Assembly: GCA_036490825.1 (NCBI GenBank)
Contig: DASXDE010000097.1
Coordinates: forward strand, 275 to 64,274
Length of the DNA stretch: 64,000 nt
From: Gaiellaceae bacterium
Lineage (GTDB): Bacteria > Actinomycetota > Thermoleophilia > Gaiellales > Gaiellaceae
Direction: 5' to 3'
Shown: piece after piece, positions 1-6,175 of the stretch
Position numbering within the stretch: position 1 is the stretch's first letter
How the letters are laid out: every line of letters starts with the position of its first letter
Notes under the pieces: model-generated
The model's input: the letters and a program-made list of their open reading frames with translations, nothing else
Database searches by the model: none
What the model was told of the DNA's origin: nothing
Position numbers and translations under genes: made by a program

Positions 1-7
1 AGCAGCG

Positions 8-277
8 ATGTATGTCGTTGCGATCCATGCCATCGACGATCCCAAGGCGTTTTGGGACGGCGCACAGGCGCTGGAGCTTCCGGAAGGTACGACTCTGCAC
101 AGCACGATCCCAAACGAGGACGGCACTCGTGCCGTTTGTTTGTGGGAGTCAGGATCGGTAGCCACGGTCGAAGGCATCGTCGAAGGCGCGGCTGGAACCA
201 TGAGCACCAACGAGTACTTCGGCGTGAACGAGCAGAACGCGATGGGACTTCCCGCCGTTCCGGCGGCAGCGAGTTAG
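8..277 (+). CDS. hypothetical small protein (89 aa)
   Basis: ATG-initiated track ORF with a diverse composition that is not Arg/Ala/Pro-biased. It is the first unit of the repeat-delimited array. I cannot name a motif. Confidence 0.5.
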   Translation: MYVVAIHAIDDPKAFWDGAQALELPEGTTLHSTIPNEDGTRAVCLWESGSVATVEGIVEGAAGTMSTNEYFGVNEQNAMGLPAVPAAAS

Positions 278-290
278 TCGGAGGCCGCGA

Positions 291-312
291 GGGCCCTGCT
301 TCCGGCGGGGTC
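291..312 (+). repeat. possible degenerate copy (R0) of the array repeat
   Basis: gggccCTGCttccggCGGGGTC keeps the GGGCC and TTCCGG blocks at the consensus 4-nt spacing, 14 nt after the stop of 8..277. Only about half of the positions match. Confidence 0.25.
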
Positions 313-334
313 TTCGCTCCTGTGCCAGGCGTAG

Positions 335-500
335 CTAGCCCCGACCATTCTCGGCTACCCGAACGCACGCATCTACGTCCTCTCCGACAGCGAGATCGTC
401 GAGACGCCGTACGAAGAAACCGAGCGGGGCGAACTGACACGATGCTTCCTCGACGACTGCCGCCGCTTCGTGCACTACTACTCGCTGACGAGCAGACGCT
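335..500 (+). pseudogene. start-less gene fragment (..ILGYPNARIYVLSDSEIVETPYEETERGELTRCFLDDCRRFVHYY..) reading into repeat R1
   Basis: The frame is open from the TAG at 332-334, with no ATG/GTG/TTG before 470. By hand count about 46/54 plus-strand codons end in G/C, versus about 30/54 for the antisense register used by track ORF 335..757. The amino-acid composition looks protein-like. Confidence 0.35.
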
Positions 501-536
501 CGCCTGGGCCAGTATTCCGGAATGACGCCTCGGATC
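501..536 (+). repeat. array repeat copy R1
   Basis: cgCCTGGGCCAGTATTCCGGAATGACGCCTcggatc matches the consensus. The downstream TGA is mutated to TCG. Confidence 0.85.
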
Positions 537-757
537 ACCGCGTACGCATCCTCCGCGCCATCAGCCGCATGGTCGTGGGCGACCGTCTCGGCTCCAGGCG
601 GCAGTTCAATCTGATACAGGCCGAAGGCTTCGACACCAAGCGCCTGGCCGATGCCCTTGTCGTACGGGCTCGCCGCCGGATGCGGGCCTGGTGCTGCCTC
701 GATAGTCGCGGCATCGAGCTTCAAGTACGAAGACACGGACGCGCCCGAAACTAACAC
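531..757 (-). pseudogene. cupin-domain gene, N-terminal part only (motif 1 present), truncated at repeat R1
   Basis: PGAETVAHDHAADGAEDAYAVIRG fits cupin motif 1, G(X)5HXH(X)nE(X)6G. No motif 2 follows. The reading frame then enters the repeat. The track ORF 335..757 continues, but with a much lower third-position GC. Confidence 0.5.
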
Positions 758-773
758 CGGCGAAGGTACGCCC

Positions 774-798
774 GCTCCGGAATGACCCCTGAGGGACG
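774..798 (+). repeat. array repeat copy R2 (3' half only)
   Basis: GCTCCGGAATGACCCCTGAGGGACG. The 5' GGCCTGGGCCAGTG part is absent. Confidence 0.6.
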
Positions 799-816
799 AG
801 TCCTCAGCGGCCGGAG

Positions 817-942
817 TTAGGCGCGAACGTCGTCGCGCTCGTCCAACTCCTCGGGCGTAGGCCCGCGTCCGGCGCCGAGGAACATGATGTTGCGCGCCAG
901 TATCCGGAAGAACGTCCGAAGGAATTGCATTGCTCGACGCAT
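817..942 (-). CDS. candidate small ORF (41 aa, MRRAMQFLRTFFRILARNIMFLGAGRGPTPEELDERDDVRA)
   Basis: Read by hand and below the track length cutoff. It has an ATG with GGAGCGG about 8 nt upstream. It is the only plausible ORF in the R2-R3 unit. Confidence 0.3.
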   Translation of the reverse strand: MRRAMQFLRTFFRILARNIMFLGAGRGPTPEELDERDDVRA

Positions 943-1004
943 CTTAGGCCGCTCCTGCGGACGAAAGGGCACTCTGAACGAAGGCTCTGGCTAAAGGGCG
1001 CCCG

Positions 1005-1040
1005 CATGGGCCAGTGTTCGGAAATGACCCTTGACGGACG
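1005..1040 (+). repeat. array repeat copy R3
   Basis: CATGGGCCAGTGTTCGGAAATGACCCTTGACGGACG. Confidence 0.8.
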
Positions 1041-1063
1041 GGCCAGGCGGCATCGACTGCGCG

Positions 1064-1333
1064 CTACCCGACTCCCTTCACCCGGCCCATCATGCAACGG
1101 ACAAGGACGGTCCGCTTCCGAGACTTGCCTGGCAGACACCCTCGTGCCTGTGCGTCAGATGCGTGGTGGGCGTAGTACAGGGCGGCGCTGGTTCGTTGGG
1201 TGGTTCGTTGCGTTCTGACCACGCGGCTTGACCCACCGCAACCAGCAAGCGCAACGAGTGTGGCCACGACCACGGCACTCGCGACTAGCCGCCACCACGG
1301 CGGCGACATCTTCCAGGAGGGCCACCGCTTCAC
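1064..1333 (-). CDS. putative small lipoprotein (89 aa; alternative ATG start at 1309)
   Basis: Signal peptide plus lipobox (LVALAGCGG). The mature part is Arg/Thr-rich and poorly convincing. By hand count GC3 is about 72%. Confidence 0.35.
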   Translation of the reverse strand: MKRWPSWKMSPPWWRLVASAVVVATLVALAGCGGSSRVVRTQRTTQRTSAALYYAHHASDAQARGCLPGKSRKRTVLVRCMMGRVKGVG

Positions 1334-1353
1334 TGGTCGGGAGCCTACGCACT

Positions 1354-1391
1354 CGCCTGGGCCAGTGTTCCGGAATGACGCCTGAGCGACG
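1354..1391 (+). repeat. array repeat copy R4
   Basis: CGCCTGGGCCAGTGTTCCGGAATGACGCCTGAGCGACG. Confidence 0.9.
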
Positions 1392-1427
1392 CACTACGGC
1401 CGCGTCAACCAGCCGGGCGCGGTCGCG

Positions 1428-1700
1428 TTACGCGGGTGCTTGTTCGACCAGGAGGACGAGCGTCTCGGCGAGTACGCCGTCGTGTGCCATCGCGTCTGCA
1501 GCCTCCTGCGTCTGCATGTAGCTCATCATGGCATCCATGTCGGGAATGTCCATCAGGACAGCGACCCTATTCGGGTCGTCAGGGCTGACGAACGTGCGGA
1601 TGTTGGTGACCCCGAGCGGGCCGAAAATCTCTTCGCGTTTCGGCGAGGCAAGCCAGTGCTCGGTATCCGTCACGTCGTGATGCCCGATCACAGTCGGCAT
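1428..1700 (-). CDS. hypothetical small protein (90 aa)
   Basis: ATG preceded by GGAGAGGAG 5-8 nt upstream. The composition is balanced and there is no signal peptide. Confidence 0.65.
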   Translation of the reverse strand: MPTVIGHHDVTDTEHWLASPKREEIFGPLGVTNIRTFVSPDDPNRVAVLMDIPDMDAMMSYMQTQEAADAMAHDGVLAETLVLLVEQAPA

Positions 1701-1800
1701 CCCGTCTCCTCTCCTTCACGGTGCCGCGGTAATCCGCCGCACCTGAGGGCGCGAGCATACGCCCGTTCCCCGACCCGCACACGCCATGCGTAAGGAGTCT

Positions 1801-1839
1801 GGCCTGGGCCAGTGTTCCGGAATGACCCCTGAACGAACG
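1801..1839 (+). repeat. array repeat copy R5
   Basis: GGCCTGGGCCAGTGTTCCGGAATGACCCCTGAACGAACG. Confidence 0.9.
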
Positions 1840-1854
1840 TTCTGTCTGAGCGGT

Positions 1855-2325
1855 CTAACCGGACTGCTCGGTTAAGGACGAGATCGCTTCATGCACGCGG
1901 CTGGCCGGGGTCGTGGCGAGTATCAATACGTTTGCGACCCGCGCAGTGGTGACGGGATTGTTTGAGGTCATCCAGTGTGCGAGCGGTTCGGTACGTACTG
2001 CGGCTTCGGCGTTCGAGGATGAGTCGAAGACGTAAGCAATTTCGCTTCTGAATGTGACCGGATTAGTGGCGATGAGGAAGGCGGTGACGTGCTTGGCATA
2101 GGGTTGTGCGCGCCGCGGTAGGAGGATCGATTGTGGCCGCGAGGCGCGCAAGTATGGATTGGTTGGGGTTCGATCCTGCTCGCTGGCGAATGGAATCCCA
2201 GCCCGCGAGAACGCCCGCTCCACTTGACGGGCGGTGAGCCCGTGAGAACTACCGCAGCCTGCGACAGCGCCGAGCACGACGACCGCAGTCGAAGCAGCGA
2301 CCACCGCGCGGAGCGTGAGACTCAT
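1855..2325 (-). CDS. putative lipoprotein (156 aa)
   Basis: N-terminal signal peptide with lipobox (LGAVAGCGSS). The composition is balanced. Confidence 0.65.
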   Translation of the reverse strand: MSLTLRAVVAASTAVVVLGAVAGCGSSHGLTARQVERAFSRAGIPFASEQDRTPTNPYLRASRPQSILLPRRAQPYAKHVTAFLIATNPVTFRSEIAYVFDSSSNAEAAVRTEPLAHWMTSNNPVTTARVANVLILATTPASRVHEAISSLTEQSG

Positions 2326-2386
2326 CGCCAGCCGATCCTAGATGCGTCATAGACGCAGAACAAGACCGCGCTGGCACAAGCACTTT

Positions 2387-2425
2387 GGCCTGGGCCAGCG
2401 TTCCGGAATGACCCTTGAGCGGTCG
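2387..2425 (+). repeat. array repeat copy R6
   Basis: GGCCTGGGCCAGCGTTCCGGAATGACCCTTGAGCGGTCG. Confidence 0.9.
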
Positions 2426-2428
2426 CGC

Positions 2429-2457
2429 TTGACGTGAGGTCTGGTGCTAGCGATACT
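2429..2457 (+). promoter_or_regulatory. candidate sigma-70-type promoter for a leaderless transcript
   Basis: TTGACG (2429-2434), a 17-nt spacer, GATACT (2452-2457), then 6 nt to the ATG at 2464. There is no Shine-Dalgarno sequence in between. Confidence 0.3.
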
Positions 2458-2463
2458 AGTGCT

Positions 2464-3033
2464 ATGGAATCGCGCGCACCCCGCCTGAGCTTCTCGCTTG
2501 ACGCACTGATTGCGGAGGCGAAGCGCCGAGCGCGGCAGCGACGTGTTCTCGTGTTGCTGCTGCTCGTCGCTGTTGTCGCCGTCGTCGCAGGAGTGACCTT
2601 CGGCTCGTCAGGCGGCGGTTCACGCGAGAGCGGCGTCCCCGGGCAGACCGGTGGCCGCTCTGATGGATCCCAGTCCGTACAGATCGGCCCCTTCGCCGTC
2701 AGAGTGCCGCGAGGTTTCCACTGGGCGGGGCCGCTGCCACGTCCCAACACGCAAAGCCTCACGATTTCGAATGTCATTAATCCGCTTGCCCCGAACCGCG
2801 TGGAGCTCGACATCGGGTACGTCGCCTCGGCAAACAGTCCGCTGTTCAGGACGTCACAGCTGCCATTGGACATCGACAAGCTTCACGCCGGGGAGAGCGG
2901 CCGGCTGTGGAGCGGGCTCGTGTCCGGGGGTGGCTCCATCTATTCGGTGCATCTTTTCTTTGGGAGCAAAGCCCCTGCTGCTGCCCGCGCGTCCGTACTT
3001 CGCGCCCTTAGCTCGATCCACCGCGCGCGCTAA
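2464..3033 (+). CDS. membrane-anchored or secreted hypothetical protein (189 aa from the ATG; the track ORF starts at GTG 2434)
   Basis: One N-terminal transmembrane segment (RRVLVLLLLVAVVAVVAGVTFG) followed by a Gly/Ser linker and a globular part. Confidence 0.6.
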   Translation: MESRAPRLSFSLDALIAEAKRRARQRRVLVLLLLVAVVAVVAGVTFGSSGGGSRESGVPGQTGGRSDGSQSVQIGPFAVRVPRGFHWAGPLPRPNTQSLTISNVINPLAPNRVELDIGYVASANSPLFRTSQLPLDIDKLHAGESGRLWSGLVSGGGSIYSVHLFFGSKAPAAARASVLRALSSIHRAR

Positions 3034-3068
3034 CTCGGGGAACACACACTCCGGCCGCTGCGGATACT

Positions 3069-3105
3069 GGCCTGGGCCAGTGTTCCGGAATGACCCCTGA
3101 AACTC
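3069..3105 (+). repeat. array repeat copy R7
   Basis: GGCCTGGGCCAGTGTTCCGGAATGACCCCTGAAACTC. Confidence 0.9.
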
Positions 3106-3181
3106 AATGCGCGGTCGAATCGAGCTACTCGACCGCTCCAGAAAAGGGACGTGGTAAAGCGCCTGAAGGGCGAAGGCCCGG

Positions 3182-3721
3182 CTAACCCCGGCAGATCGGC
3201 ACGAGCGAAGTGCTCACCCCGTTCCACCATGGGCCGTTCCGGTTGACGTACACGATGGCGTAGCCAAACCGGAACAACTTCCCGCCGTTGAGTCGTTGTG
3301 GCAGTCCGAAGACGACTTTGCCGAGCCAACGGCTCCGATAGACCGCGCAGTATCCGTCGTAGGGTTTGACCAACTGTGCGTCGCTCGGGAGTTCCTGTCC
3401 GGTGAGGCGCGCAAGCAGCGCCGATGTGCTGCGCTTCGGCGGCGAGCCGACGACCACGTGGTAGTCAGAGACGCGCCCCGGCGAGCCCCTCACTATGTGG
3501 TGGTAGACGACGTCCCCCTTCCGAGTTTCGTCAACCCGGTAATAGGTCTTTCCGGCCGGAGGCATTCCGACTCCGTGGGGGTTCGCGGCATAGAAGCGGG
3601 CGGTCGTTGCCCCGAGGCCGCCGTACGCGGCCGTCCCAGCCTGCAGCGGCGCAGCGACGAACGCGGCGGTTGAAGCCACCAGTGCGGCGATCCCAGCGAC
3701 GAAATAGAGCAGTTGCTTCAC
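3182..3721 (-). CDS. secreted hypothetical protein (179 aa)
   Basis: GTG start with GGAGGG 5 nt upstream. It has an N-terminal signal peptide (LLYFVAGIAALVASTAAFVAAPLQA). Confidence 0.65.
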   Translation of the reverse strand: MKQLLYFVAGIAALVASTAAFVAAPLQAGTAAYGGLGATTARFYAANPHGVGMPPAGKTYYRVDETRKGDVVYHHIVRGSPGRVSDYHVVVGSPPKRSTSALLARLTGQELPSDAQLVKPYDGYCAVYRSRWLGKVVFGLPQRLNGGKLFRFGYAIVYVNRNGPWWNGVSTSLVPICRG

Positions 3722-3857
3722 GAATCCCTCCGCCTAGAGCATCTACATACACCGTCCCTCCTATTTGCGGCCGATTCAAGGGTGCTAGCCTCCCCTCGCC
3801 GCCCCCGCCGGTAGCGCGCCTGAGATCTGGGCTGCCGCGCGGGCGAGAGGATCCCTC

Positions 3858-3895
3858 GGCTGGGCCAGTGTTACGGAATGACCCCTGAGCGGCGG
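3858..3895 (+). repeat. array repeat copy R8
   Basis: GGCTGGGCCAGTGTTACGGAATGACCCCTGAGCGGCGG. Confidence 0.9.
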
Positions 3896-3924
3896 TGACG
3901 ATTCGCCTTGCCGTGCCGTATCTT
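3895..3924 (+). promoter_or_regulatory. candidate promoter for a leaderless transcript
   Basis: GTGACG/TGACGA (3895-3901), a 17-18-nt spacer, TATCTT (3919-3924), then 7 nt to the ATG at 3932. Confidence 0.3.
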
Positions 3925-3931
3925 GATCGTG

Positions 3932-4378
3932 ATGAAGCGTGTTGGCGCGTGCGTGTTAGTCGCGGGCTTCGTTGTGGCCGGGACGGGCTGCGGAGCCTCT
4001 GGCACGGTGAGCGCACAGCACTCTGCTCAGCAGCAGGCGACTAGCGGGACGCGTCCGATCAGCTACCGGCCGTTCGGCGTGGCGTTAGCAGCGCCGCCAA
4101 CGAACTTCTCGCCTCGTCTCGGCCCCAAGGACTTGTCGAAGCTCTACAGAAGCCGCTTCGGTGCGTTCGGAGGCTCCCGGAGGCCTGTCGTTGCACTCCG
4201 CCTCGTGAGCTTCCGCGGTAGACGGTTTCCCGCGTGGGTCGTGACGCTGCATCACACCTCGCCTATCTCGTATGGGCCAGGGACTGTGCCCTCCACTCCG
4301 GTTTGCGACTCGGTCGCGGTGTTCGATCTGCACAGATCAGCCTGGGCGACCCGCTTCCAGGCATGCCCGAATCCTTAG
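3932..4378 (+). CDS. putative lipoprotein (148 aa from the ATG; the track ORF starts at TTG 3908)
   Basis: MKRVGACVLVAGFVVAGTGCGASG is a signal peptide plus lipobox. Confidence 0.6.
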   Translation: MKRVGACVLVAGFVVAGTGCGASGTVSAQHSAQQQATSGTRPISYRPFGVALAAPPTNFSPRLGPKDLSKLYRSRFGAFGGSRRPVVALRLVSFRGRRFPAWVVTLHHTSPISYGPGTVPSTPVCDSVAVFDLHRSAWATRFQACPNP

Positions 4379-4397
4379 CTCGGGTCAAAGGACGCAC

Positions 4398-4428
4398 GGC
4401 TGGGCCAGCGCCCTTACGCCTGACGGAC
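4398..4428 (+). repeat. array repeat copy R9 (degenerate, internal ~6-nt deletion); last copy
   Basis: GGCTGGGCCAGCGCCCTTACGCCTGACGGAC. It ends 2 nt before the stop of the first core gene. Confidence 0.6.
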
Positions 4429-4430
4429 TT

Positions 4431-4880
4431 CTAGCGATGCGCGACCCAGATCCCGGTGCCGGCCGCCGCGACTGCTGCGGCCGCGCCCAGTAGCGTCCAG
4501 CCGAGCCCGTGGTTCGGTCCCACTGCGGACAGGGAGACGACGAGCGCGGCCACCGCGAGCCCGGCGAGTCCGAGCGTCGCCACCGCCGCTCCTCTCCGCA
4601 AGGCCAGCGCCGGGGCGGCCTGGATCTCGAGCCGCGCGTCGAGCGACCAGGCCGTCAGCTCGCCGCAGAGGAGGAGCAACACGGCCACGAGCGGTGCGCT
4701 CGCGTCGGTTGCGGCTCCGGCGGCTGCCACTGCGGCGACGTACGTCGCGCCGGCGAGGAAGAGCGCCGCGCCGAGGCCGCGACCGTCGAAGACGAGCGCG
4801 ACGAGGAACAGCAACGCGCCGAGCACGAGGCCCGGCACGAACGCGACCACCGGAGACGGTGCGCGGACGAGCGCGTCCAC
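4431..4880 (-). CDS. polytopic membrane protein, last gene of the MoxR operon (start uncertain)
   Basis: This is the hydrophobic C-terminal ~150-165 aa of track ORF 4431..5816. The rest of that ORF is an Arg-rich shadow overlapping the DUF58 gene. The first canonical start downstream of the DUF58 stop is the GTG at 4880. Confidence 0.5.
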   Translation of the reverse strand: MDALVRAPSPVVAFVPGLVLGALLFLVALVFDGRGLGAALFLAGATYVAAVAAAGAATDASAPLVAVLLLLCGELTAWSLDARLEIQAAPALALRRGAAVATLGLAGLAVAALVVSLSAVGPNHGLGWTLLGAAAAVAAAGTGIWVAHR

Positions 4881-4921
4881 GACGACTCCGGCGTACGCGG
4901 CCGCGGCTCCAGCGGCCAGCG

Positions 4922-6175
4922 CTACGCGGGCCTGGCGAGGTGCCTGAATGCGTTCACCTCCTCGATCGGTACGGCGAGCGGCTCGCCATCGCGCCACGTC
5001 ACGACGGGGACGCCGACCTGCTCGTAGCGCCAGCGAAGCGCGCCCCGGGAGAGGCGCCACAGACGGTGGGCCAGCTCGAGCGACGAGCCGGGCTCCGGCG
5101 TCACGAGCTCGAGGGGGGACACTTCCACCACGATCAGGTCGTAGCCGCGGGCGCGCAAGTCGAGCAGCGCGGCGGCGGTGCGGTTGTCGAGCAGCGGGGT
5201 GATCGCCAGCACGAGCGCCTTCGGCGGCAGCGTCCGCGGCGGCAGCACGTCGACGCCGCGCAGGGCATAGCTGTGTACGACCTCGCTGGTGAGCAGCGCC
5301 TCGACGATCGCGTACAGCTGCCGCATGCCCGTCGTCGGCACCAGCCACGAGAGGAACCCGCCGAAGCCGACGAGCCCCACACGATCCTTTCGCTGCAGAT
5401 AGATGTGGGCGAGCGTCGCGGCGGCGCGCACGGCGCGATCGTTCGTGCTCCGCCCGTCGGCGCGCACCTCGGCGAACGTGTCGAGGAAGAGGACGACGTC
5501 GGTGTTCCGCTCCGGGTTCTGCTCGTTCACCCAGAGCGTGCGGCGAAGCGCGGTCGCGCGCCAGTTGACGCGCCGCAGCCGGTCCCCCGGCTGCCACTCG
5601 CGCAGGTCGGCGAACTCGATTCCCTCGCCGCGGGTGCGCGCGACCTGGTTGCCGGCGAAGACCTGCGTCTCGAGCGGAGCGACCAGTGAGCGAAGCGTCT
5701 CCTCGCGCGGGAAGACGCGCAGCGGTTGCGCCTCGCCCGCTTCGCCTTCCCACGAGCGCAGGCCGAGCATGTCGCGGGCGCGGAAGAGGACCTTTCCCAC
5801 CCGGAAGACCCCCCAATGCTCGCAGCGCAGTTGGAGCTCCAGCGTCTGCTCCTCGCCCGCACGCAGCCGGATCGCCTGTGCCGGGCTCTCCAACCCGGGC
5901 GGCAGCGGAGCGAACAGCTCGAACCGGTCGGCGCCGCGGGTCGAGGTCAGCCAGATCGTGGCCGTGACCTCGTCGCCCTCGATCACCCGGTCACGGTCGA
6001 GCGACACCCGGACCGAGACCTCAGGCTCGTGCACGGCCAGGCCTGTGACGAGCGCGAGGAGGAAGGGAGCCGCGAGAGCGACCGGCTCCACGCGGCCGAG
6101 CGCGAGGCCTGCGACGAGTCCCACCGCTGCGAGTACGGCGTAGGCCGGCAGGCGGAAGGACGTGTAGCCGGTCAC
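4922..6175 (-). CDS. DUF58 (vWA-like) family protein
   Basis: Two N-terminal transmembrane segments, then the ..VNWRATALRRTLWVNEQNPERNTDVVLFLD.. region typical of DUF58. Its start overlaps the MoxR stop, giving the canonical MoxR-DUF58 pairing. Confidence 0.8.
   Translation of the reverse strand: MTGYTSFRLPAYAVLAAVGLVAGLALGRVEPVALAAPFLLALVTGLAVHEPEVSVRVSLDRDRVIEGDEVTATIWLTSTRGADRFELFAPLPPGLESPAQAIRLRAGEEQTLELQLRCEHWGVFRVGKVLFRARDMLGLRSWEGEAGEAQPLRVFPREETLRSLVAPLETQVFAGNQVARTRGEGIEFADLREWQPGDRLRRVNWRATALRRTLWVNEQNPERNTDVVLFLDTFAEVRADGRSTNDRAVRAAATLAHIYLQRKDRVGLVGFGGFLSWLVPTTGMRQLYAIVEALLTSEVVHSYALRGVDVLPPRTLPPKALVLAITPLLDNRTAAALLDLRARGYDLIVVEVSPLELVTPEPGSSLELAHRLWRLSRGALRWRYEQVGVPVVTWRDGEPLAVPIEEVNAFRHLARPA

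Follow-up and report, generated by a model that had tools for sequence, protein, structure and literature searches.

How does a run of small genes come to be separated, one by one, by co-oriented copies of a single short repeat in a member of the Actinomycetota, a phylum from which integrons are reportedly absent? The question is posed by the first 4,430 nt of a 64,000-nt stretch of contig DASXDE010000097.1 (assembly GCA_036490825.1, positions 275 to 64,274 of the forward strand) from a Gaiellaceae bacterium; the whole stretch is referred to here as the window. Few soil bacteria are as abundant, or as little studied, as Gaiellaceae and Thermoleophilia, and among systems that stockpile and shuffle single genes integrons alone are, to our knowledge, well understood. 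A preliminary description of the window had taken the region for a cassette array or hypervariable locus distinct from a classical integron, and both the distribution of the repeat and a comparison of orthologous loci support that view. Our best explanation is that this region belongs to a numerous class of chromosomal gene-cassette arrays confined to Thermoleophilia (Gaiellaceae and their relatives).

In what follows R denotes the full repeat and T a terminal variant of it, and positions within the repeat are counted around its core, with the TG at 0/+1. A profile hidden Markov model built from 304 distinct repeat copies found in related genomes was used to score the window by nhmmer, and within positions 1-4430 it identified seven full R copies, one 3' half-copy and one T, all on the plus strand:

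485..530, plus strand: R with core T0 at 505, the 3' end diverging after about +21 (40.8 bits; direct-repeat match 80%)
776..799, plus strand: 3' half of R only (R-like from about +11), the 5' half being unrelated sequence; counted among the 5'-truncated copies (20.5 bits, model positions 37-60)
985..1041, plus strand: R (40.6 bits)
1336..1391, plus strand: R (52.2 bits; 1 mismatch to the 28-nt core)
1783..1839, plus strand: R with a perfect core (52.1 bits; 0 mismatches)
2370..2426, plus strand: R (47.1 bits)
3061..3102, plus strand: R with a perfect core (47.8 bits; 0 mismatches)
3846..3896, plus strand: R (47.1 bits)
4379..4423, plus strand: T (…ACGGCTGGGCCAGCGCCCTTACGCCTGA), with the 5' half and CCTGA as in R and without TTCCGGAATGAC; it closes the array 7 nt from the flanking gene's stop and is conserved beside the same gene in relatives (5' half 11.9 bits; T pattern at 4400-4423)

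Full copies thus score 41-52 bits, the half-copy at 776-799 scores 20 bits and the 5' half of T (4379-4409) scores 12 bits (E=7e-4). A direct-repeat search returned a 40-nt unit with eight copies, at 499, 759, 1001, 1352, 1799, 2385, 3067 and 3855, and a partial one at 4391; the 28-nt core matched six times at three or fewer mismatches in 1-4430 and never in 100 shuffles. Neither core matching nor the profile found anything comparable in the remaining 60 kb of the window. A further perfect copy lies outside the left edge, at window coordinate -159, on L121, the window's source contig from a JGI soil metagenome, which extends the sequence to the left.

These direct-repeat, profile and shuffle tests bear out the preliminary description of co-oriented direct repeats between small open reading frames (ORFs), although the conserved block is about 50 nt (-21 to +30) rather than 38 nt. 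The nine copies listed there correspond to the seven full R, the half-copy and the terminal copy, but the last, at 4398, is the conserved variant T and no randomly degenerate copy, and a possible tenth at 291 finds no support in the profile. Spacing (242-788 nt, where 230-790 bp had been given) and placement on a single strand agree, as do the retention of TGA in two plus-strand frames (by direct reading) and the absence of a hairpin (by folding tests). Each unit holds one ORF or gene fragment on either strand, as had been noted, on the basis of JGI gene calls, our own ORF caller and an ORF list. The array had been said to end 2 nt before the stop of the first core gene; T in fact ends at 4423, 7 nt before the complemented stop at 4431-4433. 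The composition of the array is atypical, at 64% GC against 72% in the rest of the window, and the GC content of third codon positions is 0.70-0.79 in its ORFs against 0.89-0.97 in neighbouring core genes.

Is the repeat peculiar to this locus? An exact search of one-genome-per-species GTDB contigs with a 22-nt degenerate core retrieved at least 120 blocks from about 80 species-representative assemblies, originating in several independent projects that include long-read metagenome-assembled genomes (MAGs). Nearly all are Gaiellaceae, Thermoleophilia or ‘Actinomycetes’ soil MAGs, and up to nine separate blocks come from one genome among the matches listed. The few matches placed in other phyla comprise one isolated partial match (Breoghania) and matches on very short contigs, the latter probably mis-binned. 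Adding the window and L121 to the listed blocks gives 122 sources, in which the profile found 418 copies at a median spacing of 632 nt (5th-95th percentile 235-2157); the largest arrays hold 15 copies per 8 kb. Neighbouring copies share a strand in 291 of 296 pairs, with five on opposite strands, so that the motif occurs in co-oriented arrays and is not scattered as single copies in the manner of repetitive extragenic palindromic (REP) elements. Around the core TGGGCCAGTGTTCCGGAATGACCCCTGA the sequence is conserved from about -21 to +30 and no farther. The least conserved core positions (+13, +22, +25 and +28) have a period of three, as if once frame-constrained; no ORF consistently covers the repeat.

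Do the units between repeats move? All-against-all tblastx of 524 segments (the inter-repeat units and the left and right flanks of each array) gave 70 strong homologous unit pairs from different loci, and in 69 of these both neighbours are non-homologous. L001 and L033 share a single repeat-bounded segment, 96.5% identical over 657 nt and 98.2% within the unit, and exactly one such segment is also common to L028/L106 (96.0%), L100/L101 (94.1%) and L007/L114 (93.0%), while L115 and L112 have two cassettes in common in swapped order. In nucleotide alignments of shared cassettes, homology begins and ends in or at the flanking repeats. Species-representative genomes are by construction less than about 95% identical genome-wide, so cassettes that are 96-98% identical in unrelated contexts point to recent transfer or relocation. 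The units are compact, the ORF occupying a median of 81%, with gaps of about 23-35 nt on the stop-codon side and about 41-57 nt on the start side. Their cargo is diverse: 105 Pfam families occur in 150 cassettes, led by GNAT acetyltransferases, cupins, extracytoplasmic function (ECF) sigma factors, α/β-hydrolases, glyoxalase/VOC and SnoaL-like proteins. ECF sigma genes, an unusual cargo, make up 7 of the 150 cassettes (L011, L029, L035, L057, L083, L103, L111, L113 and others); a link between arrays and regulation is possible.

Cassette turnover takes place at fixed chromosomal sites. We fetched 80 orthologous metagenomic loci anchored on the DUF58 protein that adjoins the window's array. The frame, DUF58 and a membrane gene on one side and OsmC-GNAT-GGT on the other, is conserved, and the interval within it measures 1.7-8.2 kb and contains 0, 1, 2, 3, 5 or 9-10 repeats, always in one orientation. 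None of the window's cassette proteins is present in the DUF58 locus of any relative, and nucleotide similarity to the window stops just past the stop of the membrane gene, in or next to T (about 4380-4431). Varying repeat number, unshared cassettes and breaks at the terminal repeat are what a hypervariable locus of the kind first described would show. The same holds at other sites: five cross-species array pairs have a common right flank (L003/L017, L013/L034, L040/L085, L066/L087 and L088/window), in which homology starts within about 15 nt of T and continues through host genes at 81-93% identity, and the arrays themselves have nothing in common but the repeats. In L013/L034 both flanks are conserved around arrays of 5.1 kb and 1.9 kb.

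Nine relatives (L128, L129, L150, L193, L203, L204, L149, L156 and L148) are without T or arrays at this site. Differing convergent genes in them end in TGA 9-13 nt from the stop of the membrane gene, which is the position of the TGA of T, and L128 and L129 keep only ‘…CCTGACGCAC’ at the membrane-gene boundary; the shared TGA could be coincidence or a recombination scar.

What distinguishes the ends of an array? The consensus of T is CTCGCCTGGGC[C/G]AGCGTCCT[YW]C[GA]CCTGA; it keeps the 5' half of R and the final CCTGA, with a shorter segment in place of TTCCGGAATGAC, and it stands beside the same membrane gene in many relatives. T is present on the array strand in about 40 of the 120 listed blocks and ends the series of copies in 34 of 41 cases; a slightly wider pattern found T 65 times on the strand of the array and 4 times on the other, and in 57 of those 65 no R lies downstream. 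In 33 of 40 cases the first confidently called gene past T is convergent, its stop codon mostly 6-27 nt away from T. Flanking genes are biased in orientation on the T side (89:40) and hardly so on the other side (78:72), and since the bias is confined to the T side we discarded replication-strand polarity as the cause of co-orientation. R copies also degenerate as their distance from T grows (Spearman rho -0.24, p=0.004): the copy closest to T averages 43.7 bits and the most distant one 36.7 bits (p=0.013). Starting at the host gene, an array reads host gene → T' → [cassette → R']n.

The anatomy of the site bears on how it might work. The R consensus, AGGACGCTCGCC-TG-GGCCAGTGTTCCGGAATGACCCCTGA, is asymmetric and about 50 bp long, and direct reading shows two short palindromes in it, TTCCGGAA and CTGG-G-CCAG. 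Dyad symmetry peaks at TG 0/+1 in both R and T, at 0.52-0.56 over 12 pairs against a background of about 0.30, the best of 49 centres. An idealised T would be AGGACGCTCGCC-TG-GGCGAGCGTCCT, with a right arm more symmetric than that of R; the stronger notion that T is a perfect 26-bp palindrome was dropped in favour of imperfect dyad symmetry, real copies of T matching just 7-8 of 12 pairs, with 6-8 typical of individual repeats. R can be read as two half-sites, a good one and then a weaker one, around a non-palindromic central dinucleotide, with a 14-nt extension (GGAATGACCCCTGA), an anatomy compatible with the site of a dimeric recombinase. Its 12-2-12 arrangement is reminiscent of hix and gix, at which serine recombinases carry out crossover. 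Folded as DNA on both strands, -90..+31, -21..+100 and the core behaved like controls 150 nt away; R and T gave z-scores of about 0 for RNA and DNA folding alike, one of six T contexts standing out when folded as RNA. There was no excess of terminator-like hairpins, and Rfam returned no match on window positions 1-6000 at E<=1. Without any excess of folding, R and T are not attC-like and most plausibly act as duplex DNA. We also considered the GGAAT in R as an ECF-type promoter element and set this aside, as no conserved -10 follows it.

Three species share a cassette together with an unusual 3'-side repeat variant, TGGGCCAGCGTGCGGGAATGTCACCCGA (L001:4076, L033:2618 and L067:2892 in oriented coordinates). 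Homology there extends across the entire variant before breaking at +28, and breaks at other junctions lie closer to the 5' half, so that a second point of exchange may exist at the 3' CCTG|A.

From these observations we conclude with good confidence that the arrays are cassette arrays in which single units are mobile. The fuller account, in which Thermoleophilia chromosomal cassette arrays are served by a trans-acting site-specific recombinase working on duplex R and T sites, is the explanation we favour by a little. A recombinase encoded elsewhere in the genome would bind R and T as a dimer, and strand exchange between two sites would excise single units as circles and re-insert them. Crossover to the left of the T-specific segment would keep T at the array end; insertion at T would regenerate T and give rise to an R at the opposite side of the inserted unit, and arrays would be renewed preferentially near T. 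Exchange at that position would explain the polarity. The enzyme, the circular intermediate, the crossover position and T-proximal insertion are the components that we infer, and the probability that a dedicated site-specific recombinase does the work seems to us evenly poised.

Several results weigh against this account. The preliminary description had suggested a recombinase to the left of the window or elsewhere; the 8.5 kb to the left hold ordinary genes only, with no recombinase, nor does an integrase lie next to T. A search for the catalytic motifs of tyrosine and serine recombinases found none in the window and, in about 1.5 Mb of array loci, one weak tyrosine-type match (L023), judged spurious. 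The 144 genes nearest the arrays, with 189 Pfam families, include no recurrent recombinase or transposase. Neither an excised circle nor an empty-site junction was observed, the same array is present in five samples of the window's strain with no polymorphism within the population, and the repeat is absent from the viral contigs and plasmids in which it was sought as a possible attP partner or transfer vehicle. The dyad symmetry is imperfect in individual copies, and of 54 arrays whose 3' side is visible, 29 at most have a recognisable T end. Breakpoints are scattered within the repeat, from about -10 to +28 in shared-cassette junctions, and 5'-truncated copies start anywhere from -3 to +12. 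Our attempt to map a single crossover nucleotide from these junctions and truncated copies was accordingly abandoned: the scatter is unlike what conservative site-specific crossover predicts.

Other candidates for an enzyme were also examined. A protein recurring beside arrays was sought and set aside, the largest cluster being an ECF sigma family at 12 of the 120 listed loci. No RAYT (HUH Y1) transposase was seen in the fetched loci (144 flanking genes), whole genomes not being searched. An integrase gene in L207 belongs to an unrelated island: L207:462-5430 is a classical tRNA-integrated island, bounded by an exact 45-nt direct repeat with the tRNA 3' end at 462-506 and 5386-5430, with a Phage_integrase gene at 813-2069 on the minus strand and a 31-nt repeat occurring three times at a spacing of about 565 nt (3119, 3698 and 4249).

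The scatter of breakpoints is, moreover, what the main rival would expect. R would then be a REP-like, lineage-specific intergenic repeat with another primary role or with no role, and shuffling would be a side effect of general RecA-type recombination on 35-50 bp of portable, identical sequence, through which DNA arriving from related arrays would replace, delete or insert units, with no dedicated recombinase. Breakpoints spread over about 40 nt of the repeat, the absence of a linked recombinase, the many arrays per genome, the solitary R in 21 of 122 sources and the frequency of partial or decayed copies all suit this explanation, which we regard as serious though unlikely. It leaves unexplained why R stands at essentially every gene boundary inside arrays, why co-orientation reaches 291:5, why a distinct and conserved T occurs at one end only, why T is placed 6-27 nt after the host stop codon, and why the 28-nt core is near-invariant over about 80 species whose core genes are 81-93% identical. 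A length of 35-50 bp is also near the lower limit for efficient RecA recombination.

R might instead serve primarily as the binding site of a regulatory or architectural protein, whether as operator, as insulator or for loading a silencer of horizontally acquired genes, and travel with accessory genes accreted by unrelated means in permissive islands. Its short dyad-symmetric core with the two palindromes would fit a dimeric DNA-binding protein, R is the most AT-rich patch within a 72% GC genome, in at least one case a promoter-like site belonging to the cassette itself follows R immediately, and ECF sigma factors are frequent as cassettes. However, the orientation of R to the adjacent gene is not fixed (117 cassette ORFs antisense and 83 sense to the repeat), and yet the R copies of an array all run strictly one way, the opposite of what is expected of a promoter, operator or untranslated region; T, the polarity and the homology breaks at repeats are left unexplained, and no terminator-like or RNA structure was found. 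We consider this reading improbable. Very improbable is a bona fide integron array without integrase, that is, a cluster of attC sites lacking integron-integrases (CALIN), with an unusually short attC and IntI elsewhere: array architecture, single-gene units, diverse cargo (GNAT, glyoxalase, cupin, SnoaL) and cassettes shared between arrays resemble it, but the repeat and its flanks have no excess folding on either strand (z-scores near 0), there is no R''/L''-L'/R' inverted organisation and no second conserved box outside -21 to +30, gene orientation is mixed, arrays are many per genome and no tyrosine recombinase is nearby. The lack of folding in R and T and of a linked recombinase argues that the array is not an integron.

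Returning to the cassette arrays with a recombinase acting in trans, a broader proposal can be made tentatively, somewhat short of an even chance in our estimation: a second, independently evolved system of cassette capture, mechanistically unrelated to integrons, with duplex sites of about 50 bp, a TG-centred dyad core in R, an array-end site T, a trans recombinase possibly of serine type (12-2-12), many docking points downstream of host genes, and exchange across species.

The window's own cassettes, and the host gene that closes the array, are the following:

8..277, plus strand: cassette ORF of 89 amino acids (aa), flanked by the R outside the window at -159 and by the next unit (JGI call; without Pfam match)
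335..757, minus strand: cupin-like gene fragment, apparently a truncated cassette gene, whose frame crosses the R copy at 499-538 (ORF list; JGI call of 129 aa spanning the repeat)
817..972, minus strand: small cassette ORF, 37-51 aa (JGI call of 37 aa; own caller)
1064..1333, minus strand: possible cassette ORF of 89 aa with a lipoprotein-like N-terminus and a weak coding signal (ORF list; negative codon score; without JGI call)
1428..1700, minus strand: cassette ORF of 90 aa (JGI call, on 9 contigs; own caller 25.0)
1855..2325, minus strand: cassette ORF of 156 aa with a lipoprotein-like signal (JGI call; own caller)
2429..2457, plus strand: promoter-like site TTGACG-17 nt-GATACT, 6 nt before the ATG at 2464 (promoter scan; region conserved in the L098 cassette)
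2464..3033, plus strand: cassette ORF of 189 aa (JGI call; own caller)
3182..3721, minus strand: cassette ORF of 179 aa with a secreted-type N-terminus, a rare orphan family (JGI call; 23 homologues in 5.8e9 proteins)
3932..4378, plus strand: T-proximal cassette ORF of 148 aa with a lipoprotein-like signal (ORF list; JGI call of 148 aa in L123)
4431..4880, minus strand: conserved flanking host gene for a membrane protein of 149 aa, the last gene of the MoxR-DUF58 operon, transcribed toward the array, its stop abutting T (JGI calls; Pfam for neighbours; similarity to relatives begins here)

Pfam gave just one weak DUF match on 10 window ORFs. To the left of the copy at -159, L121 carries ordinary genes (GNAT, NlpC/P60, cupredoxin, OsmC, GNAT, GGT … FtsZ). 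The cupin-like ORF reads across its repeat as …AYAVIRG|VIPEYWPRRA… and appears truncated there. The σ70-type promoter-like site lies directly after a repeat, and the same leader of about 100 nt is conserved in the L098 cassette, which suggests a cassette-borne promoter, probably for a leaderless mRNA. The relatives of the 179-aa protein, 23 among 5.8 billion proteins, are all unnamed; we tried following this family into other contexts and gave it up, its distant relatives (51-61% identical) sitting outside R arrays. Contig L122 (JGI Ga0376675_0000202, 77 kb) ends inside the array. Short-read assemblies break at these repeats, and arrays are therefore probably under-represented or truncated in MAGs, where the repeats mark hypervariable islands. 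If the proposed system is real, gene-cassette architectures evolved more than once, soils hold a large and so far unseen stock of mobile accessory genes, those for acetyltransferases, glyoxalase/VOC proteins, hydrolases and sigma factors among them, and a new recombinase/site pair would be available for genome engineering in high-GC Gram-positive bacteria.

We did not find a description of this system in the full-text literature on integrons or attC in Thermoleophilia, Gaiellales and Gaiellaceae, on integron-like arrays in Actinobacteria or on the motif sequence, and the best reading is that it is an undescribed cassette system with duplex-DNA sites and a recombinase encoded elsewhere. Comparison with known systems places it among several partial analogues. 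CRISPR arrays too consist of direct repeats in one orientation, with a diverged copy at one end and repeat decay that is graded along the array, but their repeats of 24-48 nt alternate with spacers of 26-72 nt and are accompanied by cas genes; here the “spacers” are genes of 200-2000 bp, irregularly spaced and holding ORFs, with no cas and no leader. REP/BIME and MIRU elements are also short, conserved, lineage-specific intergenic repeats with many copies per genome. REPs, however, form hairpins and are scattered in both orientations or as inverted pairs, whereas R is unfolded, co-oriented and arrayed, has a terminal variant and marks homology breakpoints.

The pdif modules of Acinetobacter plasmids are small gene modules, the same one turning up in varied contexts, bounded by short recombinase sites of about 28 bp, the length of the best-conserved core of R, and encoding no recombinase of their own. 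Their sites alternate (C/D then D/C) and resemble dif, which has XerC and XerD arms in an 11-6-11 layout, in contrast to R, whose sites are all direct and chromosomal; by inspection against the general dif pattern, the R core is without TTATG/CATAA arms. Systems of tandem accretion (composite islands of the SCCmec type, integrative mobile elements exploiting Xer, or IMEX, at dif such as TLC-CTX-RS1, and PAISt) also have att-core direct repeats flanking each module; they insert at the 3' ends of host genes, retain a functional or variant site where they join the chromosome, and excise module by module, and in IMEX the recombinase acts in trans (Xer), as we propose here. Repeats flanking each unit, and T mostly lying close to a convergent stop, are found in our arrays too. 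The nearest analogue found is the modular island PAISt of Streptomyces, described as integrating at an 8-bp palindrome at a gene's 3' end (PMC4057263). Tandem accretion nevertheless builds kilobase, multi-gene modules at one site per genome, unlike the single genes of 0.2-2 kb at many sites seen here; its att cores derive from the host target, but R and T are identical at sites with unrelated host flanks; and some of its modules encode an integrase, whereas none was found in the units here.

In architecture and behaviour the arrays resemble sedentary chromosomal integrons and CALINs. Both have compact, mostly single-gene, heterogeneous cassettes of atypical composition between co-oriented conserved sites, the sites being homogeneous within a lineage, with a distinct end site (attI there, T here), cassettes shared with different neighbours, and some arrays without an adjacent integrase. 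The mobility expected of integron cassettes is seen in the 69 of 70 unit pairs with unrelated neighbours and in shared cassettes of 94-98% nucleotide identity, and the layout of host gene, T' and repeated cassette-R' units is formally like attI followed by cassette-attC units. The differences lie in the machinery and in its deployment. An IntI/attI/Pc module is absent here, although a CALIN would need none nearby, and integron cassettes are mostly promoterless and co-oriented, whereas these are mixed (58:42) and at least one has a promoter-like site. Integron attC sites are imperfect palindromes of 57-141 bp recombined as folded single strands, in contrast to the non-hairpin duplex of about 50 bp that is R; and, unlike integrons, these arrays are numerous within a genome and are anchored immediately past the stops of different host genes.

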